This document shows positions 7,616-62,200 of a DNA stretch of 64,000 bases, in pieces. The stretch lies in the sequence record NZ_CP110904.1. One strand, 5' to 3'. Every line of letters starts with the position of its first letter. Within the stretch, counting starts at the first letter, position 1. The position numbers and the translations under genes are program-made. The notes beneath the pieces were generated by a model. The model did no database searches, was not told where the DNA came from, and saw only the letters and a program-made list of their open reading frames with translations. This DNA comes from a plasmid.

Positions 7616-7630
7616 AAAAGTAACTTTTCC
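7615..7630. promoter_or_regulatory. Dispersed palindrome copy AAAAAGTAACTTTTCC.
   Basis: Exact core AAAGTAACTTT. Intergenic. Confidence 0.6.
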
Positions 7631-7692: not shown

Positions 7693-7709
7693 GAAAAGTA
7701 ACTTTTTCC
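7693..7709. promoter_or_regulatory. Dispersed palindrome copy GAAAAGTAACTTTTTCC.
   Basis: Exact core. 80 bp from the previous copy. Confidence 0.6.
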
Positions 7710-14436: not shown

Positions 14437-15051
14437 TCACCGATCTCCTCATGGAATAGAGGTATGATGGCATAAAAAAAATCACCGGGAGTTCGATAAC
14501 GGAGTAGATTTCATGCGTTAAAAAACCAGAAATGTGACGCCGACAAAGCCCCAAAAACGACAGTTCAACACAGTGTCCCGGTAAAGACATGGTCTGTAAG
14601 AGAGAAATGGATTAATTATATGACGGTACAGTAATGCAAATTCGCGTTGTCATTCAGACAACACTATCCAGATTATGAACGATCCCCGTACTTTGCTGGT
14701 TAACGAATAAGGGAATTTATACTTAATTGAATACCTATAAGAAACGAAATTGGCAGGCGCATCATAAAATCTGGACTTTTCAAAGACCGTAATGAATCAA
14801 AGAATGGCAATTCATGTTAGTTATACTTACAGAAAATGAACGTTGGAAGGATAGAGCAGACAAAAAAATACGGATGGTAGTAATATTTAACACAGTATGT
14901 TTTAGATACGTCAGAACGGAAGCCGTCTGAAAATAAACAGCAACATGAGGAACCATGTGTAACGGTATGCAAGCCAAAGATTTAATAGATAAAGACGACG
15001 CAGTCTTTAGATTTTTGGTCTAAGCTTAAAACCACTCACATAAAGTAATAG

Positions 15052-15564
15052 CTAATCTAACTCCTCCTGAGAATATCTCGCTATTGCAGACACCGTTGAC
15101 GACAATCTGCACCGAGGGCAATGAGTATCATTGGTATACGGGACAATGTAAGGCCGCTTGCATTTCGCACAAGTTTCGAGTTCCTCTATTTCTTTCATTG
15201 ACGTGAGGATCTCAATGATTTTATTGACCTCAGGGGCGCAGACGAAATACCCAAGGTTATGCAGCACGCTCATGATTCGGTTGAAGTCAATATTGCGGAA
15301 GCTGGATTCCGGATGAATAGGATCAAAACCGAAGTAATTTACCGCGACATCAATAACCGCAGAAAATGCTCTGCGGTTATCCGAACGACGACTCCACCCT
15401 CGAATACCTTTTTTAACGTTTTGTTGAGGTTCCGATCTGAAATCAATATTTTCTGCAACATGGCTTCCATAAAGAATTCTTATTGAGTTTTTATTCGCAC
15501 CAAGTGACATCGTTTTTGTAGCGCTCAACAACATGTTAGCTTTAGTTTGATCGACTTTAGCCAT
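15052..15564 (-). CDS. Hypothetical protein with a C-terminal C4 zinc ribbon. It may be a transfer regulator.
   Basis: CAKCKRP...CPRC motif. It is the first gene of a divergent unit next to the putative oriT region. Confidence 0.3.
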   Translation of the reverse strand: MAKVDQTKANMLLSATKTMSLGANKNSIRILYGSHVAENIDFRSEPQQNVKKGIRGWSRRSDNRRAFSAVIDVAVNYFGFDPIHPESSFRNIDFNRIMSVLHNLGYFVCAPEVNKIIEILTSMKEIEELETCAKCKRPYIVPYTNDTHCPRCRLSSTVSAIARYSQEELD

Positions 15565-15569
15565 TTTTA

Positions 15570-16367
15570 TTAATCCTTCAAGAGCACTTTATTTGCCAAA
15601 GAGTTGAACACATCCTGACGGTGGCATGTAAACATAGTGTCGTAACGCAATAGTTCCATTAAGTCGTCACTAACTTTACCCAAACGAATGTCGGCAGATA
15701 ATTCGTATGCCCAGGCAAACACCTTAGATTTTAATGTTGCACTATCATCCCCCAACCCCGGTGTAAAGGCAATTATTCGTGGGAATAGAACGACATCGTT
15801 AATTGCTTTGAGTGATGACACACCAACATCTTTTATTGCATCTACGGTAGCAGGCTTTAATCCAAAAAATATACTGACAAACTCAGGTGCAAGCATTGAC
15901 ATAAAGAAGATCTGCATAAAATAATCATTTTGTATGTCTACACACTTGGAGCGTAACTGCTGAATTTTGCTCGGATTATAACAATCTTCCTGCCCATTCA
16001 ACAAAGTAACTTTTTCCCCTGCATTGTAAATGCCGAAGTCAGTATCGTCACTGTCATATTCACGGATAACGTTAGTGTCACCATCAACAACGGCCATAAA
16101 AAATTTATCCCACGAGATCTCTTTACCTAAAGAACGTGGAACGAGGAAACTTCCGGGACGTGTTTCAACTTCGAATGCATTATCAGCCATTGCCCCAAAC
16201 CCGGTTCCAAATAGACGGCGTTGCAGGAGTGGAGACCCTGTTTGATACATAGAAGATCCGTGAATAGGCAATAACATTAGGAATGCACGGTAACTACGAA
16301 TAATCGAAATCTCGGTACGTAATAGTTTACCGAGTAGGTTACGCGTTATGTTATCTGATTCTGACAT
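15570..16367 (-). CDS. Hypothetical protein. It may be a transfer regulator.
   Basis: 265-aa ORF with codon structure. An operator motif lies about 75 bp upstream and another is internal. Confidence 0.3.
   Translation of the reverse strand: MSESDNITRNLLGKLLRTEISIIRSYRAFLMLLPIHGSSMYQTGSPLLQRRLFGTGFGAMADNAFEVETRPGSFLVPRSLGKEISWDKFFMAVVDGDTNVIREYDSDDTDFGIYNAGEKVTLLNGQEDCYNPSKIQQLRSKCVDIQNDYFMQIFFMSMLAPEFVSIFFGLKPATVDAIKDVGVSSLKAINDVVLFPRIIAFTPGLGDDSATLKSKVFAWAYELSADIRLGKVSDDLMELLRYDTMFTCHRQDVFNSLANKVLLKD
16001..16018. promoter_or_regulatory. Dispersed palindrome copy, intragenic.
   Basis: ACAAAGTAACTTTTTCCC. Confidence 0.5.
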
Positions 16368-16440
16368 GTGCGGATTGTCCTTGCGTCAATACAATTGTAC
16401 TAATCTTCTACATGAAATTAAAGTTTGGTTTTTGAATGAT

Positions 16441-16456
16441 GAAAAGTAACTTTTGG
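16441..16456. promoter_or_regulatory. Dispersed palindrome copy about 75 bp upstream of the 15570..16367 gene.
   Basis: GAAAAGTAACTTTTGG. Confidence 0.6.
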
Positions 16457-16694
16457 AATTTTAATACTGCCTATTTGAGTCTTAAAACTAACCATTCATC
16501 CATTGGCCTTACTTGTAACACTTTTTAACCAAACTAACCAGGATTTTATCAAAAAACCCTGCGCTTGCTAACGAAATTTTAATCGCTTAAAAAAATAGCA
16601 AAGCCCGAATCGTTATCGGCATTAAGCGGCAATAACATTAGCGAAAAAAGCGATTCAGGATGAATATTTTTCCGATTGATTAACATGACTACTA

Positions 16695-16920: not shown

Positions 16921-16942
16921 GCAGAAAAAGTTACTTTTCTGC
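16921..16942. promoter_or_regulatory. Extended palindrome GCAGAAAAAGTTACTTTTCTGC about 190 bp upstream of the transfer operon.
   Basis: 10-bp arms. Sits between the four tandem palindromes and the first gene of the operon. Confidence 0.65.
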
Positions 16943-18328: not shown

Positions 18329-21300
18329 GGATTATTTGATGAATTTCAGGGCGCTATTCCTAAGTATACAAAGAGTTTTAGGCATCTTCTCCAGTAGGGA
18401 GAATGATGTGGCTGAGTTAATAATGAAGGATGTTTCGAGTCTTTCACCATTTGCTCAGATTATAGGGGATCAGAAATACACTGTACCGGATCACCCGAAT
18501 CTTGAAGTCCTGAAATTCATTGAGTACCCAACTCGGCCAGCTGGGATACAAACGTTTAATGAGCAGTCTATTCTTTCTCTTTACAGAGATAAACTGCACT
18601 CAATCTCTATGATGCTGGCAATAAGTGATGGAGACATCCGTGAGGATGCCTTTACCTTCACCAATCTGGTTTTAAAACCATTGATTGAATACATCCGTTG
18701 GATTCATTTACTTCCTGCTTCAGAAAACCACCACCATAATGGTATTGGCGGATTGTTGTCACATAGCCTGGAAGTTGCAATGATTTCTTTAAAAAATGCC
18801 AATCATTCTGAATTGCGCCCAATTGGGTATCAGGATGAAGAAGTCATTCGCCGAAAAGTATATCTCTATGCCGCTTTTATCTGTGGCCTTGTGCATGATG
18901 CCGGAAAGGTATATGACCTCGATATAGTAAGTCTGAATCTGAATGAAACTTTAACATGGGCGCCAAGCTCGCAAAGCCTGCTTGACTGGGCACGTGAAAA
19001 CAATGTTGTCGAATATGAAATACATTGGCGAAAACGCATTCATAACCAACATAATATATGGTCAAGCGTTTTCCTTGAGAGAATATTAGATCCGGTCTGT
19101 ATGTCATTCCTCGACCGTGTCAAAAAGGAGCGCGTCTATGCAAAAATGGTTACGGCACTGAATGTCTATAACGATGGCAATGACTTTCTGTCCAAATGTG
19201 TAAGAACCTCAGATTATTATTCAACGGGAACTGACCTTAATGTATTGAGGGACCCGATAATGGGTCTGCGGTCGAATGATGCTGCGGCAAGAGCAATAGG
19301 TACCATTAAGCATAACTTCACCAGTATTAATATTAATAACTATAAATCCAAACCCATGCACATCATTATTGTAAACGGTGAAGTTTACCTCAATGAAAAC
19401 GCCTTCCTCGACTTTGTACTTAGTGATTTTGCGGCCCACAAGTTCAACTTCCCACAGGGGGATGCAGGTAAAACTGTACTAGTAGAGTCGCTGGTTCAAC
19501 GGGGTTATGTTGAGCCTTACGATGATGAGCGTGTGGTTCATTATTTTATTCCCGGGACATACTCGGAAAATGAAATAGCCAGCATCTTCCGAAACGGTAT
19601 CGGTAAGCTGGAATTTTATAATCTCCTGAAACTTCGCTGGATCGGGTTAATTTTTGACTCATATAAAATCCCGGATTCTGTTCCGGGCCTCTTCAGCGTT
19701 AATGCAAATAAAGATTTCATCTATATTGATGAACAGAAAACTGTAACAGAATACAGAAGGCCGGTCCCGGGTCGTGAGTCTGTTACCAGAGTAACGGACA
19801 CCGTAAGCGACGCCATTGAAGATACTCCACAATACGGACTCAAACTCGTGAACGGCCCTGATGCCGACAGTGTCAACGGTAAAAGCAGTGAAAATACTGA
19901 AGCCATCACAGAAAGTGTGGAGGCGGCTGGCACGGATAAAGCAACCGATATTATTGATCCGCAGGTTACTACGCCAACAGATACAGCCGGAACAGGCGGC
20001 TTGGATGAAAAGGAACGGGTAGAGGAACATGAAGAGCAGAGTCAGATGCGTCTGGTCGAGCAGCTGCATGAAATGCTTCTGAGCGCCCCACTGCCCCACA
20101 ACGCAGTCATTAATATTGATTCCGTACCTTACCTTAATCTCGATGCTGCTATTGCGTTAATCCCTGGTATTGATGAGGCGGCATTTTGTGATGGGCCCTT
20201 TTTCCAGCTGACGTACCGTGATGGATCACTGGATGGTATGTGGATAGTCCGTGACGTAAACAATCTACGCCTGATACAACTGGGGGATAACTGTGCTGGT
20301 ATTCAGGTGAGCACCTCGGAACCCCGAACCACTTCTACGCTGAAGTCGCTTTTTGATACGTCAATGTACCAGCCGTTGGATATCCCTGAAAGTCCATCAT
20401 TAAACGAAGCGGTTTCGCCCCCACAAACACCGCTTGATCTCCCTCCGGCGCGACTGAATACCCCCCAGGCTGTAGAGGCCAATTCGGTAGCTGAACAGAT
20501 TAACGCCCACTCCGAACCGGAGACCGTCACTGCTTCTGAGTATGAGCAATATGGCCACCTGCTGGAAGAAACCCTAGATAGCGATAGTGAGGCATATTCT
20601 GACTTTATAGTCGCCGACAACTCTGTGGTTGAACCCCCCCAGCCTGAGGCGAAAAATAGCGATGTCGCCGAATTCCATGATGAAACAGACCAGGTCGTTG
20701 CGCCCGGTAAATTGAATGATCCTGAGGATACCAGAGAGCCACCAGCTCCCAATACAACCGGGAAAGAAGTAATTTTAACAAGTCCTGTGTCATCACAGGA
20801 CCCTATAAAATCGGAACCCGCCGGGGAGAAAGCGAACCATCTATCTCCGGCCCTGGCTCGTCTGTTTGCGGTAAACACTCAAGCAGAGAAGAAGCATGAA
20901 AATCCGCCGGTCACGACTCCAGTGAAAGAAGCCTTTAATCGATCCAACTCTGCCACAGTTCAGGCTCCTATTGCCGTTGACCAACCTGGTGCAGAAGAAA
21001 AGGAGACACTGGAAGATTTTACCCTGCTAAGTGGCGGTGAAGTTACAGAACTTGAATACGTCGAAATTGCCACAATGCTTCACCACATTCTGACTAAGTT
21101 ATCTGGGTCGTTTAAAAGAAAGCGGAAAAACCGATTCATGGTTTTGACCCAGAACACCTTTTTTCTGACCCAGTCATGTGTTGAAAAATACGGGACGCAG
21201 TTAAATGCGCCTGAGCTTTTTAACCAGCTTCCTCAATACCAGGTCACCTCCGGCGCCATAGTCAATACAAAATGTTTCGCATTCAACATGCCAACTCTGG

Positions 21301-21374
21301 TAGCCGCATCCGACCGGGCAAAGGGAGATATTGAGTTAATCATTAACACACTTAAAGATGTAGGGAATCTATAA
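18297..21374 (+). CDS. traI: MOBH-family conjugative relaxase (HD-domain TraI-like) with an acidic low-complexity C-terminal half. The true start may be a downstream Met.
   Basis: HD-domain signature HHHNGIGGLLSHSLEVA ... GLVHDAGKV. It sits immediately upstream of the coupling-protein gene. The C-terminal region is Pro/Glu/Asp/Thr-rich. Confidence 0.55.
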   Translation: MLRNYLVNANKDYLMNFRALFLSIQRVLGIFSSRENDVAELIMKDVSSLSPFAQIIGDQKYTVPDHPNLEVLKFIEYPTRPAGIQTFNEQSILSLYRDKLHSISMMLAISDGDIREDAFTFTNLVLKPLIEYIRWIHLLPASENHHHNGIGGLLSHSLEVAMISLKNANHSELRPIGYQDEEVIRRKVYLYAAFICGLVHDAGKVYDLDIVSLNLNETLTWAPSSQSLLDWARENNVVEYEIHWRKRIHNQHNIWSSVFLERILDPVCMSFLDRVKKERVYAKMVTALNVYNDGNDFLSKCVRTSDYYSTGTDLNVLRDPIMGLRSNDAAARAIGTIKHNFTSININNYKSKPMHIIIVNGEVYLNENAFLDFVLSDFAAHKFNFPQGDAGKTVLVESLVQRGYVEPYDDERVVHYFIPGTYSENEIASIFRNGIGKLEFYNLLKLRWIGLIFDSYKIPDSVPGLFSVNANKDFIYIDEQKTVTEYRRPVPGRESVTRVTDTVSDAIEDTPQYGLKLVNGPDADSVNGKSSENTEAITESVEAAGTDKATDIIDPQVTTPTDTAGTGGLDEKERVEEHEEQSQMRLVEQLHEMLLSAPLPHNAVINIDSVPYLNLDAAIALIPGIDEAAFCDGPFFQLTYRDGSLDGMWIVRDVNNLRLIQLGDNCAGIQVSTSEPRTTSTLKSLFDTSMYQPLDIPESPSLNEAVSPPQTPLDLPPARLNTPQAVEANSVAEQINAHSEPETVTASEYEQYGHLLEETLDSDSEAYSDFIVADNSVVEPPQPEAKNSDVAEFHDETDQVVAPGKLNDPEDTREPPAPNTTGKEVILTSPVSSQDPIKSEPAGEKANHLSPALARLFAVNTQAEKKHENPPVTTPVKEAFNRSNSATVQAPIAVDQPGAEEKETLEDFTLLSGGEVTELEYVEIATMLHHILTKLSGSFKRKRKNRFMVLTQNTFFLTQSCVEKYGTQLNAPELFNQLPQYQVTSGAIVNTKCFAFNMPTLVAASDRAKGDIELIINTLKDVGNL

Positions 21375-23458
21375 TGGCAAAATCAAAAAGGACCAACCTG
21401 CACGCCCAGGAAAACTTTTACAGGCCGATATTGGAGTACAGAAGTGCCTCAGTACTTTTAATTTGCGCCATAATAATGCTGTTTATGGGGTTTCGATCAG
21501 ATGGGTTGAATATTGCCCCCATCATTTTGTATACCGCTGCCTTCATGCTTTTGGTTTGTTTGTACCGCTGTAAAACGGCATACCCTTATTTGATGGCGCA
21601 CTGGCGCGTGTTTCAGCGCCAGATTATGTTTATTAGCCTTAAATCGCTCAGGTCGATCAACAAAAGTAACTTTTTCTCTAACGAGCGAAAGTACCGCCAG
21701 CTGGTACAAGAGTATAAAAAATCCAACCGTCAGGTACCGGACAGAAAAACCTACTTCTGTAACGGCTTTGAATGGGGTCCCGAGCATGCAGATCGCGCGT
21801 ATCAAATTGCCAATCTCTCAAGCGATAAAAGAGAGATAGCCCTGCCATTTGCCCTAAACCCCATAGCGCGGCATTTTGAGGCGATGGCCAGATCCATGGG
21901 TGGCAGTAACGCCATTTTTGCTGTTGATAAACGGGCGCCAATTTTTGTTACCGAAGATAACTGGTTCGGCCATACCCTCATTACCGGAAACGTCGGTACC
22001 GGTAAAACAGTCCTTCAGCGGTTATTGAGCATCAGTATGCTGCATTTAGGCCACGTCATTGTGGTTATTGATCCAAAGAACGACGCAGATTGGCGGCAGT
22101 CACTTATGGATGAAGCGGCGGAACTTGGGTTGCCATTTTATAAGTTTCACCCTGCCCAGCCTTCTTCTTCAGTGTGTATTGATGTCTGCAACGCTTATAC
22201 CAATGTTTCGGACCTCACCTCACGCCTTCTTAGTCTGGTTTCGGTTCCCGGGGAAGTTAACCCATTCGTACAATATGCCGAGGCTCTCGTTTCAACTGTG
22301 ATCACCGGTCTGTCTTACACGGATAAAAAACCGTCGATATATCTCATTCATAAAAACATGAAAAGCCACATGGCAATCCTGAACCTCACCGTAAAAGTTC
22401 TGGAATGCTGTTATGCACGGCACTACGGGCCCGATGTATGGATGGAAAAGGTGAAATATTCTTCGAATGATACTCTACAAGTCCGCTTTAAGCGCCTTGT
22501 TGAATGGTTTTCTGCCCACTTCTTGAATTATGAAGGTGCCGAGCCCATTGATTGGATTGATACCGTCGGCCGGTTAGTAGATTATTCTTTGTCTGATCCT
22601 GAGCACATGTCAAAAATGACAGCGGGTATTATGCCGCTGTTCAGTCGTCTGACCGAACAACCACTGAATGAATTGCTTTCGCCGTCACCTAATTCACTCA
22701 CTTCGCGTGAAATAGTCACTTCAGATGGAATATTCAGTACCGGAGGTGTTCTCTATATCTCGCTCGATGGTCTTTCCAACCCGGAATCCGCCCGGGCTAT
22801 TTCGCAGTTGATAATGTCAGACCTGACGTCCTGCGCGGGTAGTCGCTATAACTCTGATGATGGTGATATGTCCTCACATTCAAGGATCAGTATTTTCGTC
22901 GACGAAGCACACTCCGCAATCAACAATTCAATGATAAACTTACTCGCTCAGGGTCGTGCCGCACAAATTGCATTGTTTATTTGCACGCAAACCATTTCCG
23001 ATTTTATTGCAGCAGCAAACGTTGAGACTGCAAATCGTATTACGGGTCTGTGTAACAATTACATTAGCCTGCGGGTAAACGACACCCCAACGCAAACGCT
23101 GGTTGTAGAAAACTTTGGTAAAAGTCCAATTAGTACAAATATGGTCACGTATACGACAGGATCAGAAACCACTTTGCCGCATAATAACTTCTCTGGTTCG
23201 ATATCAGAAAGAAAGCAAACAACGCTGGAAGAAAGTATTCCGAAAGAGCTTTTAGGCCAGGTTCCAAAATTTCATATTGTGGCCAGACTTCAGGATGGTC
23301 GTAAAGTCGTCGGGCAGATCCCGATTGCCGTAAGTGAAAACTCGATGAGACCCAATACAACATTATTGGAGATGTTCCTGAAACCAGCCGGAAAAGTAAC
23401 TTTGCGTCAGAATGTGGGTTTAGACTATTTAAATAAACATCTAAGGAAATTGCATTGA
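21374..23458 (+). CDS. traD: Type IV coupling protein (TraD/TraG-like ATPase).
   Basis: N-terminal TM segments, Walker A GNVGTGKTV and Walker B IFVDEAHS. It follows the relaxase gene. Confidence 0.7.
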   Translation: MAKSKRTNLHAQENFYRPILEYRSASVLLICAIIMLFMGFRSDGLNIAPIILYTAAFMLLVCLYRCKTAYPYLMAHWRVFQRQIMFISLKSLRSINKSNFFSNERKYRQLVQEYKKSNRQVPDRKTYFCNGFEWGPEHADRAYQIANLSSDKREIALPFALNPIARHFEAMARSMGGSNAIFAVDKRAPIFVTEDNWFGHTLITGNVGTGKTVLQRLLSISMLHLGHVIVVIDPKNDADWRQSLMDEAAELGLPFYKFHPAQPSSSVCIDVCNAYTNVSDLTSRLLSLVSVPGEVNPFVQYAEALVSTVITGLSYTDKKPSIYLIHKNMKSHMAILNLTVKVLECCYARHYGPDVWMEKVKYSSNDTLQVRFKRLVEWFSAHFLNYEGAEPIDWIDTVGRLVDYSLSDPEHMSKMTAGIMPLFSRLTEQPLNELLSPSPNSLTSREIVTSDGIFSTGGVLYISLDGLSNPESARAISQLIMSDLTSCAGSRYNSDDGDMSSHSRISIFVDEAHSAINNSMINLLAQGRAAQIALFICTQTISDFIAAANVETANRITGLCNNYISLRVNDTPTQTLVVENFGKSPISTNMVTYTTGSETTLPHNNFSGSISERKQTTLEESIPKELLGQVPKFHIVARLQDGRKVVGQIPIAVSENSMRPNTTLLEMFLKPAGKVTLRQNVGLDYLNKHLRKLH
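21661..21678. promoter_or_regulatory. Dispersed palindrome copy, intragenic in the coupling-protein gene.
   Basis: CAAAAGTAACTTTTTCTC. Confidence 0.5.
23389..23407. promoter_or_regulatory. Dispersed palindrome copy about 50 bp upstream of the 23455 gene.
   Basis: CCGGAAAAGTAACTTTGCG. Confidence 0.55.
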
Positions 23459-29781: not shown

Positions 29782-30219
29782 TCAGTACGACAGACACAAG
29801 CCGGTTGACCGTTCAAAAATGTCCTGTAAATGAATACCACAGACATCCAGATTAAAGCGGACAAGCTCTGCTTCATTATTTGAAGTAGAAAATAAATAAA
29901 AATCAAATCCACCTGTATTATCATCTTTGAAAATTCTGAAGGAATTATTATCAACAGCGTCGGCCAGTTCAACGTGAACGCCATAGCGCACTTCACCGTC
30001 GTCAAACTGTGCAATTCGGCGCACAGATTTAAGACGGACAAATTTCGCCAGCTCCAGTTCGGGCGCCTGGGAAAACGTCAGTGCCTCGAAGATGAGATCA
30101 GCCGTTTCATGTTGCTTCCTGCGGTCGAACTCAAACAAACCGCCACCGTTGTTGCGATAGACCGGCTGAAGCGCATTGACCAGGTTGAACGACTGCCGGT
30201 TCCTGTCATATCTGTACAT
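29782..30219 (-). CDS. Hypothetical protein.
   Basis: 145-aa ORF. No recognised motif. Confidence 0.25.
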   Translation of the reverse strand: MYRYDRNRQSFNLVNALQPVYRNNGGGLFEFDRRKQHETADLIFEALTFSQAPELELAKFVRLKSVRRIAQFDDGEVRYGVHVELADAVDNNSFRIFKDDNTGGFDFYLFSTSNNEAELVRFNLDVCGIHLQDIFERSTGLCLSY

Positions 30220-30268
30220 TTAAAGGTACTCCAGACCTGCCAGCATCCACCAGCAGGACATAATGTGA

Positions 30269-30565
30269 TTAGTGCCAGTCGGCGATCAGTTCTTCGCACT
30301 GCAAAAAGGATAAGCACTGCTGTGCCAACACGGGCAGTACGGCAATGTTGGGTAGGCGGTTGTAACACCAGGCGTTAAACAGCATCTGCCACGGACCGGC
30401 GTAGTAACCGGCCATTTTCTTTTTTTGCTTCGGAGTACGGCACGCTGAAATAGCCTGCTGATAGAGACTTTCATTTTCGGCACCTGAGCGTTGTTGCAGT
30501 GCCTTGTAAATAAAGGAATAGAGAGCGTCGGAACAATTAGATGCGTAAGCCAGACTGATTTTCAT
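30269..30565 (-). CDS. Hypothetical protein.
   Basis: 98-aa ORF. No recognised motif. Confidence 0.25.
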   Translation of the reverse strand: MKISLAYASNCSDALYSFIYKALQQRSGAENESLYQQAISACRTPKQKKKMAGYYAGPWQMLFNAWCYNRLPNIAVLPVLAQQCLSFLQCEELIADWH

Positions 30566-30776
30566 AATACCTCCTGTTTTTTGGTATTATATAAAATTCG
30601 ACCTGCTAGCTAATAACCTACACTGAATATATTTTTAAATTCCCATAAATATTAAATATGGACGAATGTGGATTTAAGCGTTGTAAATTATTAAAACCAT
30701 ATCTTATTCTACCATTATGTATTCCCTACAATACGCTTGCTAATTCGTAATTTTGCAGTTATTTGAATATCACCAT

Positions 30777-31833
30777 GGCTTTGTTGAATAAATCGAACTT
30801 TTGCTGAGTTGAAGGATCAGATCACGTATCTTCCCGACAACGCAGACCGTTCCGTGGCAAAGCAAAAGTTCAAAATCACCAACTGGCCCACCTACAATAA
30901 AGCCCTCATCAACCGTGGCTCCATAACTTTCTGGCTGGATGATGAAGCTATTCAGGCCTGGTATGAGTCAGCAACACCTTCTTCACGAGGCAGACCTCAG
31001 CGCTATTCTGACCTTGCCATCACGACTGTGCTGGTCATTAAACGCGTATTCAGGCTGACCCTGCGGGCTGCGCAGGGCTTTATTGATTCCATTTTTTCTC
31101 TGATGAACGTTCCGCTACGCTGCCCGGATTACAGCTGTGTCAGCAGGCGGGCAAAGTCGGTTAATGTCAGTTTCAAAACGCCCACCCGGGGTGAAATCGC
31201 ACACCTGGTAATTGATTCCACCGGGCTGAAGGTCTTCGGTGAAGGCGAGTGGAAAGTCAAAAAGCATGGCCAGGAACGCCGCCGTATCTGGCGTAAGCTG
31301 CATCTCGCCGTTGACAGTAAAACACATGAAATCATCTGCGCTGACCTGTCGCTGAACAACGTTACGGACTCAGAGGCCTTCCCCGGGTTAATCCGGCAAA
31401 CCCACCGGAAAATCAGGTCAGCCGCCGCCGATGGCGCTTACGATACCCGGCTATGTCACGATGAACTGCGGCGTAAGAAAATCAGCGCGCTTATCCCTCC
31501 CCGAAAAGGTGCGGGTTACTGGCCCGGTGAATATGCAGACCGTAACCGTGCAGTGGCTAATCAGCGAATGACCGGGAGTAATGCGCGGTGGAAATGGACA
31601 ACAGATTACAATCGTCGCTCGATAGCGGAAACGGCGATGTACCGGGTAAAACAGCTGTTCGGGGGTTCACTGACGCTGCGTGACTACGATGGTCAGGTTG
31701 CGGAGGCTATGGCCCTGGTACGAGCGCTGAACAAAATGACGAAAGCAGGTATGCCTGAAAGCGTGCGTATTGCCTGAAAACACAACCCGCTACGGGGGAG
31801 ACTTACCCGAAATCTGATTTATTCAACAAAGCC
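30777..31833 (+). mobile_element. IS903-group (IS5 family) insertion sequence, copy 1, flanked by the 9-bp target duplication TATCACCAT.
   Basis: Terminal inverted repeats GGCTTTGTTGAATAAATCG at 30777 and its reverse complement ending at 31833. The element is 1057 bp. Identical 9-mers lie at 30768–30776 and 31834–31842. Confidence 0.85.
30854..31777 (+). CDS. tnpA: IS903-group DDE transposase (GTG start; the ORF track begins at an upstream TTG).
   Basis: N-terminus (M)AKQKFKITNWPTYNKALINRGSITFWLDD is characteristic of IS903/IS102 transposases. It is 99% identical to the copy at 48507–49430. Confidence 0.8.
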   Translation: MAKQKFKITNWPTYNKALINRGSITFWLDDEAIQAWYESATPSSRGRPQRYSDLAITTVLVIKRVFRLTLRAAQGFIDSIFSLMNVPLRCPDYSCVSRRAKSVNVSFKTPTRGEIAHLVIDSTGLKVFGEGEWKVKKHGQERRRIWRKLHLAVDSKTHEIICADLSLNNVTDSEAFPGLIRQTHRKIRSAAADGAYDTRLCHDELRRKKISALIPPRKGAGYWPGEYADRNRAVANQRMTGSNARWKWTTDYNRRSIAETAMYRVKQLFGGSLTLRDYDGQVAEAMALVRALNKMTKAGMPESVRIA

Positions 31834-32009
31834 TATCACCATCCTAAAAGCTGGTAGCCACCTATTTTCCCTCGGATGTAAGTTCACAATAACTCTGTTT
31901 ATTGCCTGTTCAGTGGCGGTTAAGATTTATAAATGGGTGTGCCATTCGTCAAATCGGTATCCATGGGGTTTGCAGGTACTTATTAAAACGGATCATTCAC
32001 CTTTTACGT

Positions 32010-32355: not shown

Positions 32356-33563
32356 TCATGCCTGGCCCTGTTGCTGCTTTTCGGCATGCTTACGCAGGTA
32401 CTGCGTGAGATTGCCGTGGGCTTCACAGATGGCATTCATCTCATCATTGGTCAGCACTAAGGTGTACGTATCGTCGCTGAGGTTCTTAGCGGCACGTTGT
32501 TCTGCTTCTTCCGCAATACGCGAAAAAAGCGGGATTGCCGTGTCCGCAATCGTCGTCACGGTCTTTTTGTTGAGTACGCTGGAGACCGATACAGTTTTAG
32601 GCTCTGGCGTTTTGATCGGATCTTTCGCCTTCGGCTCCGGGGTGTTTTCCGGAGTTGGCTCCGGGTTGGTCCCAACATTCCCGTCCACCAGCTGCGGCGG
32701 GGTGGTCTCATCCGTAGTACCTTCGACGGATGTTTGTTCCGTCACGGTGGTTTCAGGGGTGTTTGCGTTCGTTTCCTGCACGACCGGCGCTTTCGGCTGC
32801 ATGGCTGCATCAATTTTGCCAGCTTTGACGAATTTAAGGGTTTTGGCCGTCGCCTTGCCATAGACGTCGATGGCTTTGGTGATATTATTCACGGCCTTAT
32901 CGCCGCTGTAGAGATATTCATCCAGCGCGACATACATGCTCACTTCCCCTGTCACCAGCATAACCTGGAGGGCTTCAGGCAGGTCCAGGACGCGAACCAT
33001 CTGACGCAGGTGCTGTTCTGTTTTACCGCGACGCTTGGCCAGTTCTGCGAACGTTTTAGGTTCTTCAGCATCTTCGACCATCCGTTTGATGGAGAGCGCC
33101 TCAGCCACGACAGACAGAGCCAGATTAGAGTTACCGTCCAGCGTAAACTGTTCGGCACTGGCGCGGCTACCGCGAAACTCCTCGCAGCGAATTAACGAAA
33201 TCAGTTCACGCCCTTCCTCTGCCAGCTCGATGTTTGCCATAGCGGCGGCGCGGATACGACATGCCCCCTGACGCAGAACAGGACGACCATTCAGAACCTG
33301 CACGACGATAGCTGGTACGCTTAAAGGCTCAGACTTATAGGACTCTTTAAGACTGTTCAGGTGGGCTACCACGTGGGGTAAGGAGTAGTAGCTTTCTCCC
33401 ATGCCAGCGGTACGGGTGTTAAAACCTTCTTCCTCTTCGACCACTGCCGGGTTGATGACCAGACCATTGCTTTTGCGTGCGCCGTTACCGGAACGCTCCA
33501 GGTAAGTGCGCAGGCTGATATCGTTGTTAGCGGTTTTTACATCATTTTCGATAGTGGACATTG
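32356..33563 (-). CDS. parB: ParB/KorB-like partition or regulatory protein (start placed at MSTIEND after the RBS aaggaagg).
   Basis: ParB-box-like LRQGACRIRAAAMA (GxRRxRA-type). A central HTH-like region. The C-terminus is Pro/Thr/Glu-rich. Three palindromic operator copies cluster within 350 bp upstream. Confidence 0.45.
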
Positions 33564-33650
33564 TGGCCTTCCTTTTAATTTTTCGTTTAGGGTGGTTGTT
33601 CGCTACAACACAACAATACCAGGTTCGATTCATTTCCTAATAACCTGAGG

Positions 33651-33677
33651 CGAAAAAAAAAGTAACTTTTTTTCCCG
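33651..33677. promoter_or_regulatory. Dispersed palindrome copy (site 1 of 3 upstream of parB-like).
   Basis: CGAAAAAAAAAGTAACTTTTTTTCCCG. Confidence 0.6.
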
Positions 33678-33772
33678 GGGTAATAGTACGTGATCCGTCC
33701 GTTTTAATTTTTCGCTAAGGAGGCCAAATTTAACTTTAGTGTGAAATCGGGTACCAAAAAGCCGGAATTTAT

Positions 33773-33790
33773 CGAAAAGTTACTTTTCCG
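33773..33790. promoter_or_regulatory. Dispersed palindrome copy (site 2 of 3).
   Basis: CGAAAAGTTACTTTTCCG, a near-perfect 18-bp palindrome. Confidence 0.65.
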
Positions 33791-33890
33791 TCTGCAAGAA
33801 CCCACAATAATGCAGATCCGTCAGCATGAAAGGTGTGACATGCGCTGAAGGGAAGATGAGTAAGAGGGGAACTGCGGCGTCACACGGCAT

Positions 33891-33906
33891 CTAAAGTTAC
33901 TTTTCC
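33891..33906. promoter_or_regulatory. Dispersed palindrome copy (site 3 of 3).
   Basis: CTAAAGTTACTTTTCC. Confidence 0.6.
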
Positions 33907-34467
33907 AAAATATGGAATGGCAATCTATCTATCGCTATAAAGGAATAACCGGGATCACTGTCGAACATCTCAACGCGGGGCAGGTAGAATGAGGGAATTA
34001 AAATCGGGCCAGGCTAAATCTGCCCGACCATCGGGAAAGGATACGGCGGCATGGGTCTTACACGAGATAATGCGAATGTATGGTCTTTTCCGGTTGCGAC
34101 TGTTGGGTTTCTTTCTCACCTGTGGCTAACCGTCGGTATTCGGCGTCACAAAACATCCGTAAGTTGGTAAAGACTTTCTCCATAAACTCAGCGTGAGCAA
34201 ACGACTCACCCGGGGATTGTGTACGTTCTTTCATACATTCCTTTTTAATCATGTCGACACCTTCGGCACAGGTTGCAGCGGGTACGTCAGCGGGTCACCA
34301 GCTGGCGCTGATAATTCGTGAATCCGGAATAGTATTCTACCCTGTTCGCATGCCACATCTGGTCGATAAGCGGGGAATTTCAATCCTATATTGAACCCAG
34401 CGACCACCGCAGGGAGAAGGGGCACATGACTTGTTTGTCCGTCCGGTCTCGGCATAAGGAGCGAGCC

Positions 34468-34722
34468 ATGAGCAAAGAGACTCTGTCACTGGCAACCCGT
34501 TACGCGGGCAACTCCTCTGTGATTTCGGAAATGCAGACAGCGCTGGACGTAATGCCGCTGGTGACGGAAGCCGTTCAGAGCGTGTGCGAACGGGTTGAAT
34601 GTGAGCCCACTGAATTTCTGGACGCGATGGCGCTTGTAAAACGTTTCCTGCTGGCAAAACAAGATGAACTCCGTGCGGAAAGCGTTTCAATCCGCAAGCA
34701 GCTGGGTGAGATGGGGGAATAA
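34468..34722 (+). CDS. Small hypothetical protein (start at MSKETLS).
   Basis: RBS-like ggagcgagccATG. First gene of a plus-strand cluster of small genes. Confidence 0.3.
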   Translation: MSKETLSLATRYAGNSSVISEMQTALDVMPLVTEAVQSVCERVECEPTEFLDAMALVKRFLLAKQDELRAESVSIRKQLGEMGE

Positions 34723-35132
34723 TGATGATTAAGTCTACTATCAGCAACGATGCGCTTCGCACCCGTATTCAGGCGCTGCGTAAAACCAGTGCAAACACCC
34801 TTGTCAGCACGGCGAAATTCGACGCTGATGCGCTGGAGGACCTCCTGCGCCTGCGTACCGCAGTGAAGCTGAGACGAGTACACGTGGTCCAGAGTGGCAC
34901 CTGCGACTGCGAGGAGCCCTGTGAATGCATGCCCGGGCTGTATGTAACCGTCGACTCCGGCGTGGGTCACGGCCAGGCGGTCTGGACTTACCGGGACGAC
35001 GGAAAATCCGGTCTGGCGTACTGGTGCGAATTTATGGGACTCGCTCCATTCTGGGCCGAAGACCAGATGCATGCCGCCGAACTGCTTCGCGAGAAACTGG
35101 CCCCTGACCCGACGGTTTCAACAGCGACATGA
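34722..35132 (+). CDS. Hypothetical Cys-rich protein.
   Basis: SGTCDCEEPCECMPG motif. Its start overlaps the upstream stop. Confidence 0.3.
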   Translation: MMIKSTISNDALRTRIQALRKTSANTLVSTAKFDADALEDLLRLRTAVKLRRVHVVQSGTCDCEEPCECMPGLYVTVDSGVGHGQAVWTYRDDGKSGLAYWCEFMGLAPFWAEDQMHAAELLREKLAPDPTVSTAT

Positions 35133-35440
35133 CACGGCTGCACTCTCCCCCTGGGAGCCGCACTACGCGGCTCTGTTTGACCGAGAACACTATGACCGAT
35201 AACAATGAAAAGCACGTTAACGCGATCCATATGAAGGGCAACGATAACGCGAAAAAAGATGAGGCCGACAAAGCAACGGCACTGGTCCAGATGCGTATGA
35301 CCCCGGAGAAAAAATCACGCTATGTCCGTGAGGCGAAGCGTAATGGCCTGACTATCTCGGCATGGATTCAGCGTCATATGGATCAGGTATGTGATGAGTC
35401 AGACGTAAACTATCTAAAGAAAAAGGCTGGCGAGCAATAG
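35129..35440 (+). CDS. Small RHH-like putative DNA-binding protein (paralog A).
   Basis: Shares QMRMTPEKKSRY..A..NGL(T)IS.WI..HMD.VCD with 36511..36885. Confidence 0.35.
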   Translation: MTRLHSPPGSRTTRLCLTENTMTDNNEKHVNAIHMKGNDNAKKDEADKATALVQMRMTPEKKSRYVREAKRNGLTISAWIQRHMDQVCDESDVNYLKKKAGEQ

Positions 35441-35460
35441 GCGACAGTCCACCAGCAGCA

Positions 35461-35480
35461 GCGAAAAGTTACTTTCCCGG
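35461..35480. promoter_or_regulatory. Dispersed palindrome copy between small regulator-like genes.
   Basis: GCGAAAAGTTACTTTCCCGG. Confidence 0.6.
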
Positions 35481-36511: not shown

Positions 36512-36885
36512 TGCGATTGAAAATGAAAACGAAGATGAAACAGCCCAAATCTGCACTTCAGAATGCGATGAAGGGCGAAGAGCCTGCGAGCGTACAAATT
36601 CAGATGCGTGCCACTGTAACAAGAAAAGAACGCTATAAGGCGCAGGCAATTCAGGAGGATCTGAATTTAACCGAATGGATGGCGAATCATCTGGACGCCG
36701 TCTGTGACGCCGCCGAAGGAAAGGCATCCGTCAGCATCTTTTCCCCGGTTGTACCGGAGAAGATCCCAGACAGCGTCTACCAGGTCATCTATCAGGAATG
36801 CGGCGGGTTCGTGGACTGCGATGCGAATGCCCAGACGATCTGGAATGCCTGCCGCCAGGCCATTCTGAAAAACGTGAAAGACTGA
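36511..36885 (+). CDS. Small RHH-like putative DNA-binding protein (paralog B).
   Basis: Motif QIQMRATVTRKERYKAQAIQEDLNLTEWMANHLDAVCD, paralogous to 35129..35440. Confidence 0.35.
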   Translation: MRLKMKTKMKQPKSALQNAMKGEEPASVQIQMRATVTRKERYKAQAIQEDLNLTEWMANHLDAVCDAAEGKASVSIFSPVVPEKIPDSVYQVIYQECGGFVDCDANAQTIWNACRQAILKNVKD

Positions 36886-48026: not shown

Positions 48027-48407
48027 CTACTGCTGCTTCTGGAACGCGACGAACGTCGCGAAAACAGCTATCAACACTGCCATGAAGTAAACCAGGTATG
48101 AGCCGGATTGCCAGATATTTACGCCGAAAAAAGAAAGTAACTTTCCGTCCGGGATAATAGAAAAAGCCAGGTTCCATAATCCGGTCAGTACAACCTGAGC
48201 GATAATCATTTTTCCCAGCGCACCCAGTTCCTGAGTTGCATACATTGCAGCCATTACAAATGTCAGAACTACCACAAGGAGAGCAGACAAAGCCACAACC
48301 GAAATGCTCAGTCCGACGGACGTAAATATAATGGCTTCTTTAAAAGCCAGACCTGTAAACCCCCAGATCAGAATGACTAAAATGAAAAACAACAGGATAA
48401 ATTTCAT
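48027..48407 (-). CDS. Polytopic small membrane protein.
   Basis: Four hydrophobic helices in 126 aa. Confidence 0.4.
   Translation of the reverse strand: MKFILLFFILVILIWGFTGLAFKEAIIFTSVGLSISVVALSALLVVVLTFVMAAMYATQELGALGKMIIAQVVLTGLWNLAFSIIPDGKLLSFFGVNIWQSGSYLVYFMAVLIAVFATFVAFQKQQ
48131..48147. promoter_or_regulatory. Dispersed palindrome copy, intragenic.
   Basis: AGAAAGTAACTTTCCG. Confidence 0.45.
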
Positions 48408-48450: not shown

Positions 48451-49507
48451 GGCTTTGTTGAATAAATCAGATTTCGGGTAAGTCTCCCCCGTAGCGGGTT
48501 GTGTTTTCAGGCAATACGCACGCTTTCAGGCATACCTGCTTTCGTCATTTTGTTCAGCGCTCGTACCAGGGCCATAGCCTCCGCAACCTGACCATCGTAG
48601 TCACGCAGCGTCAGTGAACCCCCGAACAGCTGTTTTACCCGGTACATCGCCGTTTCCGCTATCGAGCGACGATTGTAATCTGTTGTCCATTTCCACCGCG
48701 CATTACTCCCGGTCATTCGCTGATTAGCCACTGCACGGTTACGGTCTGCATATTCACCGGGCCAGTAACCCGCACCTTTTCGGGGAGGGATAAGCGCGCT
48801 GATTTTCTTACGCCGCAGTTCATCGTGACATAGCCGGGTATCGTAAGCGCCATCGGCGGCGGCTGACCTGATTTTCCGGTGGGTTTGCCGGATTAACCCG
48901 GGGAAGGCCTCTGAGTCCGTAACGTTGTTCAGCGACAGGTCAGCGCAGATGATTTCATGTGTTTTACTGTCAACGGCGAGATGCAGCTTACGCCAGATAC
49001 GGCGGCGTTCCTGGCCATGCTTTTTGACTTTCCACTCGCCTTCACCGAAGACCTTCAGCCCGGTGGAATCAATTACCAGGTGTGCGATTTCACCCCGGGT
49101 GGGCGTTTTGAAACTGACATTAACCGACTTTGCCCGCCTGCTGACACAGCTGTAATCCGGGCAGCGTAGCGGAACGTTCATCAGAGAAAAAATGGAATCA
49201 ATAAAGCCCTGCGCAGCCCGCAGGGTCAGCCTGAATACGCGTTTAATGACCAGCACAGTCGTGATGGCAAGGTCAGAATAGCGCTGAGGTCTGCCTCGTG
49301 AAGAAGGTGTTGCTGACTCATACCAGGCCTGAATAGCTTCATCATCCAGCCAGAAAGTTATGGAGCCACGGTTGATGAGGGCTTTATTGTAGGTGGGCCA
49401 GTTGGTGATTTTGAACTTTTGCTTTGCCACGGAACGGTCTGCGTTGTCGGGAAGATGCGTGATCTGATCCTTCAACTCAGCAAAAGTTCGATTTATTCAA
49501 CAAAGCC
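48451..49507 (-). mobile_element. IS903-group (IS5 family) insertion sequence, copy 2, flanked by the 9-bp target duplication GCTACGATG. It is inverted relative to copy 1.
   Basis: Inverted repeats GGCTTTGTTGAATAAATC at both ends. The element is 1057 bp. Identical 9-mers lie at 48442–48450 and 49508–49516. Confidence 0.85.
48507..49430 (-). CDS. tnpA: IS903-group DDE transposase (copy 2).
   Basis: Identical to copy 1 except for one residue in the track ORF extension, which lies upstream of the GTG start used here. Confidence 0.8.
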   Translation of the reverse strand: MAKQKFKITNWPTYNKALINRGSITFWLDDEAIQAWYESATPSSRGRPQRYSDLAITTVLVIKRVFRLTLRAAQGFIDSIFSLMNVPLRCPDYSCVSRRAKSVNVSFKTPTRGEIAHLVIDSTGLKVFGEGEWKVKKHGQERRRIWRKLHLAVDSKTHEIICADLSLNNVTDSEAFPGLIRQTHRKIRSAAADGAYDTRLCHDELRRKKISALIPPRKGAGYWPGEYADRNRAVANQRMTGSNARWKWTTDYNRRSIAETAMYRVKQLFGGSLTLRDYDGQVAEAMALVRALNKMTKAGMPESVRIA

Positions 49508-53392: not shown

Positions 53393-53409
53393 AAAAAAGT
53401 TACTTTTCA
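53393..53409. promoter_or_regulatory. Dispersed palindrome copy about 50 bp upstream of the 52853..53347 gene.
   Basis: GAAAAAAGTTACTTTTC. Confidence 0.6.
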
Positions 53410-61603: not shown

Positions 61604-62200
61604 AGCCATCCTTGAAAAACGGACCAGGGCGGCTTCACACTGCTCTTTACCCCACGAGTCCTGCCAGTCGCACAGGTGGAGATATTTGCGTTCGAGTGCT
61701 TCCATTTCATCGAGATTTGAACTCGATAATCCCGCCCAGACGTCGTGCCAGCACACATCGTAAGTAACGCCTGCCGGTGGGCAGTATTCCAGAGCATCCG
61801 CATGGATGATTTCAACACGGGGATCGTGGGCAAAGGCCTCGGCAACCAGGTTAATCACATCCTGCGACTTCTCAATGACAGTCACGTTGTTAACTTCCGG
61901 CTTCTGAAGAATGGCGTGCAGCACCATCCCCAGCCCCAGTCCGTTGATCAGGACGTGCCCTGTCGCTCGCTTTATGAACTCCTGACAGAGTTGGATTTCG
62001 TATGGCAAATTGGTCATCACCACATTTCTGCCATTTGAAAGGCGGCGATAGTTACCGGGCTGTAAAACCGCGTCGATATCCTCCGTAGCGGCACGGAGGA
62101 AAAGGCTAACCGCCTTATCTTTGGAGATTTCGAAGCTGTCCAGTGTCCAGGCACCGGATGTTCCATCTTTAACAGGTAAATTAGAAAAGCAACTCTTCAT
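61589..62200 (-). CDS. Small Rossmann-fold SAM-methyltransferase-like protein (paralog 1).
   Basis: VLINGLGLGMVLHAILQ (GxGxG), VTVIEKSQ and IIHADALEY. The 3' end overlaps the methyltransferase start. Confidence 0.4.
   Translation of the reverse strand: MKSCFSNLPVKDGTSGAWTLDSFEISKDKAVSLFLRAATEDIDAVLQPGNYRRLSNGRNVVMTNLPYEIQLCQEFIKRATGHVLINGLGLGMVLHAILQKPEVNNVTVIEKSQDVINLVAEAFAHDPRVEIIHADALEYCPPAGVTYDVCWHDVWAGLSSSNLDEMEALERKYLHLCDWQDSWGKEQCEAALVRFSRMADEQP

Follow-up and report, generated by a model that had tools for sequence, protein, structure and literature searches.

KorB and its operator (OB) sites on the IncP-1 plasmid RK2 appear, by analogy of parts and layout, to be the closest functional analogue of the locus described here: a gene encoding a ParB-like protein and a cluster of three palindromic boxes upstream of it, found in a 64,000-nucleotide stretch of plasmid DNA (sequence record NZ_CP110904.1; the whole stretch is referred to as the window). 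RK2 is a plasmid of about 60 kb, in which KorB is an essential repressor of lethal genes and recognizes the operator sequence TTTAGCSGCTAAA. According to Kostelidou and Thomas (2000), as cited in PMC11790492, RK2 contains 12 OB sites, at which KorB behaves as a cytidine triphosphate (CTP)-dependent sliding clamp acting up to 1.5 kb from OB (PMC11790492). In the Shigella virulence plasmid pINV, VirB loads at virS in a CTP-dependent manner and slides along the DNA (PMC10770331). BisD, encoded by ICEclc, has a GxxR-dependent nucleotide-binding pocket and acts over long distances on transfer promoters (PMC12409273).

Plasmids of incompatibility groups HI1 and HI2 (IncHI1, IncHI2) are, together with related megaplasmids, vehicles of multidrug resistance and of resistance to colistin (mcr-9) and carbapenems, which they spread in Salmonella, E. 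coli, Enterobacter and Klebsiella. The known IncHI regulators are TrhR, TrhY, HtdA, H-NS and Hha, and no cis-element for any of them was found in the literature searched (open-access papers and preprints). The same search returned no description of the box, of the function of R0104 (the orthologue of the ParB-like protein in the IncHI plasmid R27) or of an IncHI global operator, and the system, which is shared by megaplasmids of clinical importance, appears to be undescribed there. The data presented below indicate that the boxes are genuine sites, occur far more often than expected, are confined to the backbone and are maintained by purifying selection, and that both the association of the cluster with the gene and its geometry are conserved. 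A KorB-like, autoregulatory role is the best-supported explanation for these data. We consider it somewhat more probable than not that the gene encodes an orphan ParB-family regulator that would control its own expression and act through a KorB-OB-like network of sites, and we hold with much higher confidence that the boxes are selected protein-binding sites.

KorB and the IncHI protein both belong to the ParB family and, according to the structural model of the latter, share an arrangement of N-terminal domain, helix-turn-helix (HTH), flexible linker and C-terminal domain, KorB (8qa9) being the top structural match. The two systems have in common a 13-bp palindromic operator in which the odd centre is degenerate, and sites scattered along the backbone (about one every 5 kb) in promoter-proximal or distal positions and inside or between genes, as well as at the operon of the regulator itself. 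The operators differ in sequence (TTTAGCSGCTAAA for KorB vs AAAAGTNACTTTT for the IncHI box), sequence similarity between the proteins is marginal (phmmer E value of 0.64), and the number of IncHI sites is four to seven times higher (49-89). KorB is encoded and works with the ParA homologue IncC, functions also in partition, and is locked at promoters by KorA or TrbA, whereas neither a ParA nor a KorA-like partner was found for the IncHI protein. Of the attributes of a KorB-OB regulon, the locus shows the many-site palindromic operator in promoter-proximal, distal and intragenic positions, and no co-regulators or partners were found for it. In addition, deletion of the gene is tolerated in R27 (PMC4853401).

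The remaining systems resemble the locus in part. VirB is an orphan ParB-family protein from a large enterobacterial plasmid, without a ParA partner, that is used for the control of transcription, and a similar use is proposed by analogy for the IncHI protein. Since H-NS exerts strong control over IncHI plasmids, as it does over pINV (PMC7366339), a role in anti-silencing is conceivable. VirB has few sites, located upstream of specific virulence promoters, and is thermoregulated, whereas IncHI boxes are numerous, with many of them inside genes, and temperature has no effect on the expression of R0104. BisD is also a ParB-like protein of a conjugative element with parS-like sites, but it has an extra activator domain, a partner (BisC), two bisS sites and a spreading range of about 50 kb, in contrast with the canonical layout and the approximately 50 sites of the IncHI protein. 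Noc from Bacillus subtilis, a ParB paralogue that has no ParA, uses numerous palindromic sites scattered over one replicon, including intragenic ones, and is a structural match (7ol9) to the IncHI protein; it is a chromosomal protein that carries a membrane-targeting helix and acts in nucleoid occlusion. Finally, ParABS systems share with the locus the protein fold and the presence of palindromic sites beside the gene; unlike them, the IncHI protein has no ParA partner or ParA-interaction motif, its sites are dispersed, and its deletion is not destabilising.

A three-box cluster upstream of the ParB-like gene

The core of the box, AAAGTWACTTT, is present upstream of the ParB-like gene as AAAGTAACTTT at positions 33659-33669 and as AAAGTTACTTT at positions 33776-33786 and 33893-33903. 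Spacing from centre to centre is exactly 117 bp in both intervals, the box centres lying 103, 220 and 337 bp upstream of the ATG at position 33561. The initial annotation of this region had reported three palindromes clustered about 120 bp apart upstream of the gene, and single or paired copies elsewhere in the window, and both statements agree with our data: other copies in the window are single or form two loose pairs (7617/7695 and 16443/16927), so that the cluster is its sole triple. The window contains 15 exact copies of AAAGTWACTTT, in comparison with 0.02 expected from dinucleotide-preserving shuffles, and the count rises to 19 when the centre base is left free (four extra copies with G or C at the centre).

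The cluster is located in a non-coding gap of 496 bp, flanked by the ParB-like gene and by a small open reading frame (ORF) on the same strand (34058-34234). Rfam and small-ORF searches of this gap yielded no Rfam match and no credible ORF. Tandem duplication was considered as the source of the equal 117-bp spacing and was rejected, as the two spacers are alike only in the boxes. Helical phasing of the box spacings across lineages was not significant, approximately 8 of 12 deviating from a whole number of turns by no more than a quarter turn. The probability of a triple within 240 bp was about 0.04 with 45 sites distributed uniformly, and 0.12 when only non-coding DNA was considered. A triple within one plasmid is only modestly improbable, and the cluster is convincing because it is conserved in six diverged lineages.

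Distribution of the box in the plasmid

Large conjugative plasmids from Citrobacter, Enterobacter, Klebsiella and E. coli (e.g., pCF_324-2 and pP10159-4) match the window with 99.9-100% identity, and MOB-suite typing assigned these near-identical plasmids to IncHI1B, MOBH and MPF_F. The window comprises the Tra1 transfer region (trhH, trhR, mobI, the MobH relaxase gene and traD) followed by a long run of small genes typical of a leading/anti-defence region (DUF905, DUF957, DUF3085, hok, relBE, orphan methyltransferases and a gene similar to those for phosphoadenosine phosphosulfate (PAPS) reductase), and the ParB-like gene is located inside this run.

Whole-plasmid counts were made on the complete sequence of pP10159-4 (228,709 bp), assembled from five segments. 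This plasmid contains 45 copies of AAGTWACTT (about 2.3 expected) and 49 copies of AAAGTNACTTT (0.31 expected). An unbiased scan of 5+5 and 6+6 palindromes with gaps of 0 to 4 identified the box as the sole strongly over-represented palindrome on pP10159-4, no second one being found. The position matrix derived from 45 sites corresponds to RAAAAGTNACTTTTY, a 15-bp palindrome that is symmetric (R at -7, Y at +7) and in which the centre base is free. The one-sided TTCC extension of the sites in the window had hinted at a strand asymmetry, and hence at a single-strand or transfer role, and this was refuted by the symmetry of the 45-site matrix.

Boxes occur along the backbone at a density of about one per 5 kb, and none was found in the 30-kb resistance island (67-97 kb of pP10159-4). 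On the basis of annotated gene positions, 21 of the 45 boxes lie between genes, as a rule 50-200 bp before a start codon, and 24 are intragenic. The cluster is the only locus on this plasmid with at least three boxes within 300 bp. The initial annotation had compared the combination of a cluster and dispersed copies with the logic of KorB OB sites or of parS; the KorB-OB pattern extends to the whole plasmid and to the plasmid family, and the centromere part of the comparison did not hold, as described below.

Conservation of the box and of its association with the ParB-like gene

A distant Klebsiella plasmid of the pNDM-MAR type carries 89 copies of the identical box. Given that the backbone proteins of this plasmid are only 25-65% identical to those of pP10159-4 (38% for TraI, 34% for TraG and 29% for TrhR), the box is far more conserved than the surrounding proteins. 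Chromosomal parS and ParB across bacteria behave likewise, the site being more conserved than the protein. Comparison with an IncHI2 plasmid covered about 25 kb of Tra1, in which DNA is 67-78% identical. All seven alignable boxes of the window have a box at the orthologous IncHI2 position, mostly inside genes (trhH, trhR and, twice, traD), the surrounding DNA being about 72% identical; both arms are intact in the IncHI2 boxes, and the centre base varies (A to T, A to C, C to T). The joint chance of retaining seven out of seven boxes under neutral drift is about 3e-10.

The arrangement of boxes and gene was also conserved. The centre of the proximal box is placed 103 bp from the ATG in this window, 100 bp in IncHI1-type plasmids, 96 bp in IncHI2, 116 bp in the Klebsiella lineage, 104 bp in Yersinia-type sequences (Logan contigs) and 97 bp in a further lineage (L018), so that the 96-116 bp distance holds down to 36% protein identity. 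In R27 the same arrangement is found: the two boxes are located at 92,113 and 92,231, and the gene at 92,336. Every lineage has at least one further box 100-300 bp beyond the proximal one, and the Klebsiella lineage has six boxes in 750 bp. Orthologues of boxes 1 and 2 are shared by IncHI1 (118 bp apart), IncHI2 (126-127 bp apart) and the lineage of the window. Neither IncHI1 nor IncHI2 has an equivalent of box 3, and the DNA around this box does not duplicate the spacer between boxes 1 and 2.

A homology-blind scan for pairs of boxes 95-125 bp apart, carried out on one genome per species for 185,579 species, retrieved 17 loci. Eight of the ten enterobacterial loci abut the ParB-like gene studied here, and the remaining two correspond to other parts of a box-rich plasmid. 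Non-enterobacterial loci with arrays of the same 13-mer (Bacteroidaceae, Brachyspira, Paenibacillus) were discarded, as they have no ParB-like gene and lie in unrelated contexts. Among them, a metagenome-assembled genome (MAG) of Bacteroidaceae has six copies of the 11- to 13-mer in 1 kb upstream of SusD/SusE-like genes (L034, 578-1540), a Brachyspira MAG has five copies upstream of a Rep-like gene on a small contig (L030, 3110-3337), and Paenibacillus has five copies in a 113-bp tandem repeat after a glycosidase gene (L028, 7288-7749). The box is not a property of all relatives, since no boxes were present within 12.5 kb of the IncC homologue (30% identical).

Two variants of the locus were observed in this survey. 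In the IncHI2 plasmid pFF2-1h-mcr-9 (L007, 6260-8790), an IS66-family element at or next to the proximal box splits the ParB-like gene from two boxes; this plasmid is otherwise intact and was predicted by MOB-suite to be conjugative. The ParB-like gene and the box pair are also present in CP169086.1 (L027), an Enterobacter hormaechei sequence labelled as chromosome, which suggests that an IncHI2-type plasmid was integrated into the chromosome.

The fact that the box is far more conserved than any backbone protein might also be explained if the sites were bound by a host factor, or if they were signals at the DNA level (bending, or end points for recombination or deletion) with no dedicated plasmid protein. 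The A4/T4 arms could give rise to intrinsic curvature, and IncHI1 plasmids lack the segment 33787-35475, with a junction that runs from box to box. We regard this explanation as improbable. Strict palindromic symmetry around a free centre base is characteristic of recognition by a dimeric, sequence-specific protein, and the distribution of the boxes is specific to the backbone. Furthermore, a rough estimate from base composition gives far less than one copy per host chromosome, so that a host regulator would have essentially no chromosomal regulon. To our knowledge, the box does not match the consensus sequences of Fis, IHF, CRP or H-NS, which also counts against a host factor.

The ParB-like protein

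The sequence indicates that the ParB-like gene most likely starts at the ATG at position 33561, which is accompanied by a AAGGAAGG ribosome-binding site, rather than at position 33633. Its product is 90.8% identical to R0104 of R27 (92,336-93,541), and consists of an N-terminal ParB domain (G99-x-x-R102), an HTH, a linker of about 80 amino acids predicted to be disordered and a helical C-terminal domain. Residues 149-209 matched Pfam HTH_ParB (PF17762) with a score of 23.6 bits vs a cutoff of 22.6, and the match to TIGR00180 was weak. A phmmer search of PDB sequences retrieved Spo0J and ParB, including the ParB DNA-binding domains 6s6h and 6t1f. In the alignment with Spo0J, the motif GERRFRAA corresponds to GACRIRAA (G77-E-R-R80-F-R82-A in Spo0J and G99-A-C-R102-I-R104-A in the ParB-like protein), with two of the three patch arginines kept. 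Residues G99 and R102 of the GxxR motif are invariant across orthologues and paralogues. The arginine of this motif is needed for nucleotide binding in BisD (R95; PMC12409273) and in KorB (R117; PMC11790492).

An AlphaFold2 model based on 14 homologues had a predicted local distance difference test (pLDDT) score of about 90 for residues 15-250, followed by a disordered stretch (250-328) and by helices at residues 332-399 with pLDDT values of 57-75. Foldseek comparison of this model with the PDB identified RK2 KorB (8qa9) as the first match, followed by CTP-bound ParB, Caulobacter ParB, Noc (7ol9) and Spo0J, with E values of about 1e-8. The matches span the N-terminal domain and the HTH, and include KorB-operator, Noc-NBS and ParB-parS complexes. 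Both a GxxR-bearing N-terminal ParB/Srx-type domain and a central ParB-type HTH, features of members of the family, were thus recognized. The model indicates that the protein is a true member of the ParB family with the canonical layout, and the description of the gene product as ParB-like is borne out by its fold, its HTH and the GxxR motif.

Expression data are available for the R27 orthologue: R0104 is well expressed in a temperature-independent manner (signal values of 2196 vs 2155), and the adjacent ORFs were scored as not expressed (PMC7366339 supplement). This expression pattern is compatible with autoregulation.

Candidate proteins for binding to the box

In the explanation that we favour, a dimer of the ParB-like protein would bind the boxes through its ParB-type HTH. 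Binding to the cluster would result in negative autoregulation of the gene and would make of the cluster the main nucleation point, and the approximately 50 other boxes, whether promoter-associated, intergenic or intragenic, would make up a network similar to that of KorB and OB, through which the protein would act on the backbone. The protein may be a CTP-dependent clamp that loads at the boxes and slides from them. Two observations point to the ParB-like protein as the binder. The two most diverged box plasmids share, among proteins with a recognisable sequence-specific DNA-binding domain, only members of the ParB family; in addition, the ParB-like gene is the most constant association of the box across lineages.

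Several data weigh against this explanation. By manual count, about 41% of HTH residues are identical in the Klebsiella orthologue, so that this domain is not better conserved than the full-length protein (36-37%), even though the box is invariant. No strong sigma-70 promoter overlapping a box was detected in a consensus scan. Two ParB-like paralogues are encoded in the same plasmid, and the Klebsiella orthologue of paralogue 2 is preceded by boxes at distances of 112 and 291 bp. Two residues of the arginine patch are replaced (E78 by A and R79 by C, Spo0J numbering), which leaves the patch incomplete, and D-G-N-S-N stands in place of the ENLQR sequence of box III; CTP binding is therefore uncertain. 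Finally, R27 without the orthologue is viable and stable, so that the protein, unlike KorB in RK2, is not an essential repressor of lethal genes. If the protein were a CTP-dependent clamp, the small set formed by KorB, VirB and BisD would gain an enterobacterial member of clinical relevance that is independent of ParA and has unusually many sites.

The paralogues are part of an alternative in which the boxes are operators of another plasmid protein, either paralogue 2 or 3 (R0042 and R0153 in R27) or an uncharacterised backbone protein such as TrhR, TrhY or HtdA, and the ParB-like gene would be only the most heavily controlled target. The two paralogues are encoded at 222718-223872 and 227094-228167 of pP10159-4, near a Dam methylase gene, and contain HTH_ParB domains; their R27 counterparts were annotated as partition proteins in a transcriptome study and are induced in conjugation-permissive conditions (PMC7366339). 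Control by one of these proteins would be consistent with the 112-bp geometry of the Klebsiella paralogue-2 orthologue, which is the same as that of the ParB-like gene, and with the presence of boxes near several transfer genes (trhR, mobI, htdT, trhF and trhU). Many backbone proteins also lack a recognisable domain, and a hidden DNA-binding protein is possible among them. On the other hand, on pP10159-4 paralogue 2 has a single degenerate box upstream and paralogue 3 has none, and the latter has no separate orthologue on the 89-box Klebsiella plasmid. TrhR, TrhY and HtdA show no DNA-binding domain, and the main pilus-operon promoter region (pP10159-4 record 2128-2418) is devoid of boxes. The only lineage-invariant association of the box is that with the ParB-like gene, and we consider control by another plasmid protein unlikely. 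Plasmids carrying paralogues only (L038 and L039) were tried as discriminators of the binder and turned out to be recent deletion derivatives, which made them unsuitable for this purpose.

Regulation by the ParB-like protein admits a more far-reaching version, which we put forward as a tentative and rather doubtful possibility. The boxes, present every 2.4-5 kb, might form a ParA-less, plasmid-wide loading grid for a ParB-family clamp which, from a hub at its own gene in the leading region, would coat or patrol a backbone of 200-300 kb and silence or de-silence backbone and leading-region genes, perhaps together with H-NS and Hha. The estimate from base composition implies for this version that nearly no boxes would be expected on the host chromosome. 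Such a grid would represent control of a whole replicon beyond the 12-site, ParA- and KorA-dependent KorB system. An invariant palindrome present 49-89 times per plasmid, with a hub at an orphan ParB-family gene, provides a testable entry to the regulatory architecture of the backbone, and an R27 deletion strain without the gene already exists. The box is also a compact sequence signature for recognising IncHI-type backbones.

Relationship of the cluster with plasmid partition

A ParB-family protein beside clustered palindromes is the classic arrangement of parS, and the plasmid encodes a ParA in trans. The cluster might then be a parS-like centromere, with the ParB-like protein acting in partition together with a ParA encoded elsewhere, as the initial annotation had suggested as a possibility. 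Our data disfavour this view, which we consider very improbable. The absence of a ParA-like Walker ATPase next to the gene, noted in that annotation, was confirmed for the whole 64-kb window, in which neither a ParA/ParM homologue nor a deviant Walker-A motif (KGGxGK[ST]) was found. A search for parA elsewhere on the replicon did identify a ParA about 80 kb away; this ParA belongs, however, to a complete ParA/ParB operon (14,287-16,541 of pP10159-4), which is accompanied by a ParM module (19,789-21,526). The flanks of both modules are devoid of boxes, and a tandem array (54 bp, 9.5 copies) directly precedes the parA gene of the former (Par1). This array, at 13473-13985 of the pP10159-4 record, is the likely centromere of this plasmid.

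A similar situation was observed in the Klebsiella plasmid, in which parA is immediately preceded by 21 copies of another palindrome, ACAACCCCGTTGT, and parB is followed by two further copies; this is the form that a centromere takes in the plasmid family. The coordinates of these copies in CP052539.1 are 179073-181104 (about 21 copies) and 184462-184528 (two copies), with spacings of about 65 or 132 bp, and the array is presumably the parS array of this plasmid; ACAACCCCGTTGT does not occur on pP10159-4. The boxes, by contrast, are dispersed at 49-89 sites, some of them intragenic, and are not focused at one locus. Visual inspection of the N-terminus of the ParB-like protein revealed no ParA-interaction motif of the LG(R/K)GL type.

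Genetic data from R27 also argue against a role of the cluster as centromere. Tassinari et al. deleted R27 in blocks of 5-7 kb, and only Del16 (incC) lowered stability (PMC4853401). Del7 covers positions 90,001-96,150 (R0099-R0110), including R0104, which was annotated as similar to Caulobacter ParB (PMC4853401). Examination of the R27 sequence confirmed that the orthologue (92,336-93,541) and both boxes (92,113 and 92,231) lie within Del7, whose removal caused no significant stability defect (PMC4853401). Redundancy with Par1 and Par2 could mask a minor partition role in the Del7 derivative. Altogether, no cognate ParA and no focusing of the sites at a par locus were found, and no loss of stability upon deletion was reported.

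Putative promoter region of the ParB-like gene and other boxes in the window

The coordinates of the relevant features are compiled in Table 1. Between box 1 and the ribosome-binding site, an invariant block contains an extended -10-like sequence, and distant lineages have a T-A-N-N-N-T hexamer (T1, A2, T6) at the position aligned with TGGTATTGT. This block is a candidate core promoter, inferred from the sequence, and the centre of box 1 would then be placed near -58. The second invariant block, GATCCGTCCGTTTTAA, may be an alternative promoter element or a site for a second protein. As a weaker alternative, the promoter might be located upstream of box 1, with this box at about +1 and box 2 about 117 bp upstream, in a looping-type arrangement. 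A consensus promoter scan called neither of these candidate promoters of the ParB-like gene. Since a terminator-like hairpin closes the small-ORF transcript, transcription of the ParB-like gene probably starts from a separate promoter within the box region.

Table 1. Coordinates of boxes, promoter-like elements and associated genes in the window
Feature	Coordinates	Strand	Remarks
ParB-family gene (orphan)	32356-33561	minus	401 aa; orthologue of R27 R0104
Invariant block TCGAACCTGGTATTGTTGTGTTGTAGC	33601-33628	minus	between box 1 and ribosome-binding site; invariant in window, IncHI1 and IncHI2
Extended -10-like element TGGTATTGT	33621-33613	minus	inside invariant block 33601-33628
Box 1 (proximal) AAAAAGTAACTTTTT	33657-33671		centre 33664; 103 bp upstream of the ParB-like ATG
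Invariant block GATCCGTCCGTTTTAA	33692-33707		between boxes 1 and 2; contains GATC; invariant in window, IncHI1 and IncHI2
Box 2 GAAAAGTTACTTTTC	33774-33788		centre 33781; 117 bp from box 1
Box 3 (distal) CTAAAGTTACTTTTC	33891-33905		centre 33898; 117 bp from box 2; lineage-specific
Terminator-like hairpin	34007-34029	minus	end of small-ORF transcript
Small ORF	34058-34234	minus	58 aa; upstream of cluster
Single box	35465-35475		about 95 bp upstream of DUF5417 gene (35565)
Box pair	7617-7627 and 7695-7705		gap between convergent gene ends
Intragenic box, trhH	13361-13371		first 40 nt of the gene; kept in IncHI2
Intragenic box, trhR	16003-16013		kept in IncHI2, centre A to C
Box upstream of trhR	16443-16453		just downstream of -10-like hexamer; trhR/mobI divergent region; kept in IncHI2
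Box upstream of mobI	16927-16937		about 190 bp upstream; IncHI2 box at corresponding place
Intragenic box, traD	21663-21673		kept in IncHI2
Intragenic box, traD 3' end	23393-23403		65 bp before next gene; kept in IncHI2, centre A to T
Intragenic box, hypothetical gene (48027-48407)	48134-48144
Intergenic box	53396-53406		about 50 bp upstream of minus-strand gene starting at 53347
Intragenic box, PAPS-reductase-family gene	54677-54687

No conserved neighbouring partner, either KorA/TrbA-like or IncC-like, was found for the ParB-like gene. The small ORF was considered as a KorA-like partner and rejected: a homologue (49% identical) exists in IncHI2 only, and the IncHI1, Klebsiella and Yersinia-type lineages have either no such ORF or an unrelated one. 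Diverging from the box region, a plus-strand operon encodes two ribbon-helix-helix (RHH)-like paralogues (35192-35440 and 36535-36885) with weak matches to NikA, RHH_10 and MobA. These two proteins were rejected as binders of the box, since the 89-box Klebsiella plasmid encodes no homologue of either and the IncHI1 locus lacks them.

IncHI1-type plasmids lack positions 33787-35475 of the window, a 1.7-kb segment with the small ORF, three small genes and one RHH gene. The right flank of the single box at 35465 matches the flank of box 2 in IncHI1, and marks this box as a box-to-box deletion junction; boxes therefore appear to have provided short homology for a deletion or insertion. The trhR/mobI divergent region is probably the origin of transfer (oriT). 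The boxes at 7617 and 7695 are 78 bp apart, in a 372-bp gap between the ends of a HAD-like gene (7615) and a TraG-N gene (7987). Neither a promoter nor a terminator was predicted in this gap, and the pair may be comparable to the class III operators of KorB or may mark an unannotated small gene or RNA.

Additional features of the window and of related plasmids

Relative to pCF_324-2 and pP10159-4, the window has an insertion of IS903B at 30777-31837, with a 9-bp target duplication (30768-30776 = 31834-31842), and a second IS903B is located at 48507-49475. Close to its end, the window contains two tandem paralogous genes (61589-62200 and 62262-62897) for proteins of about 200 amino acids with weak matches to S-adenosylmethionine (SAM)-dependent methyltransferases, and a segment of about 409 nt is 86% identical between them. 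These paralogues show 62-69% identity with the Klebsiella plasmid, in comparison with values of 25-50% that are typical of the backbone. In CP052539.1, a GC-rich palindrome, CCCCCGNNNNCGGGGG, forms an array with a period of 61 bp at 30072-31226, beside genes annotated as Cas6/Cse3/CasE, Csf2 and DEAD/DEAH helicase. This is a plasmid-borne array of clustered regularly interspaced short palindromic repeats (CRISPR), probably of type IV.

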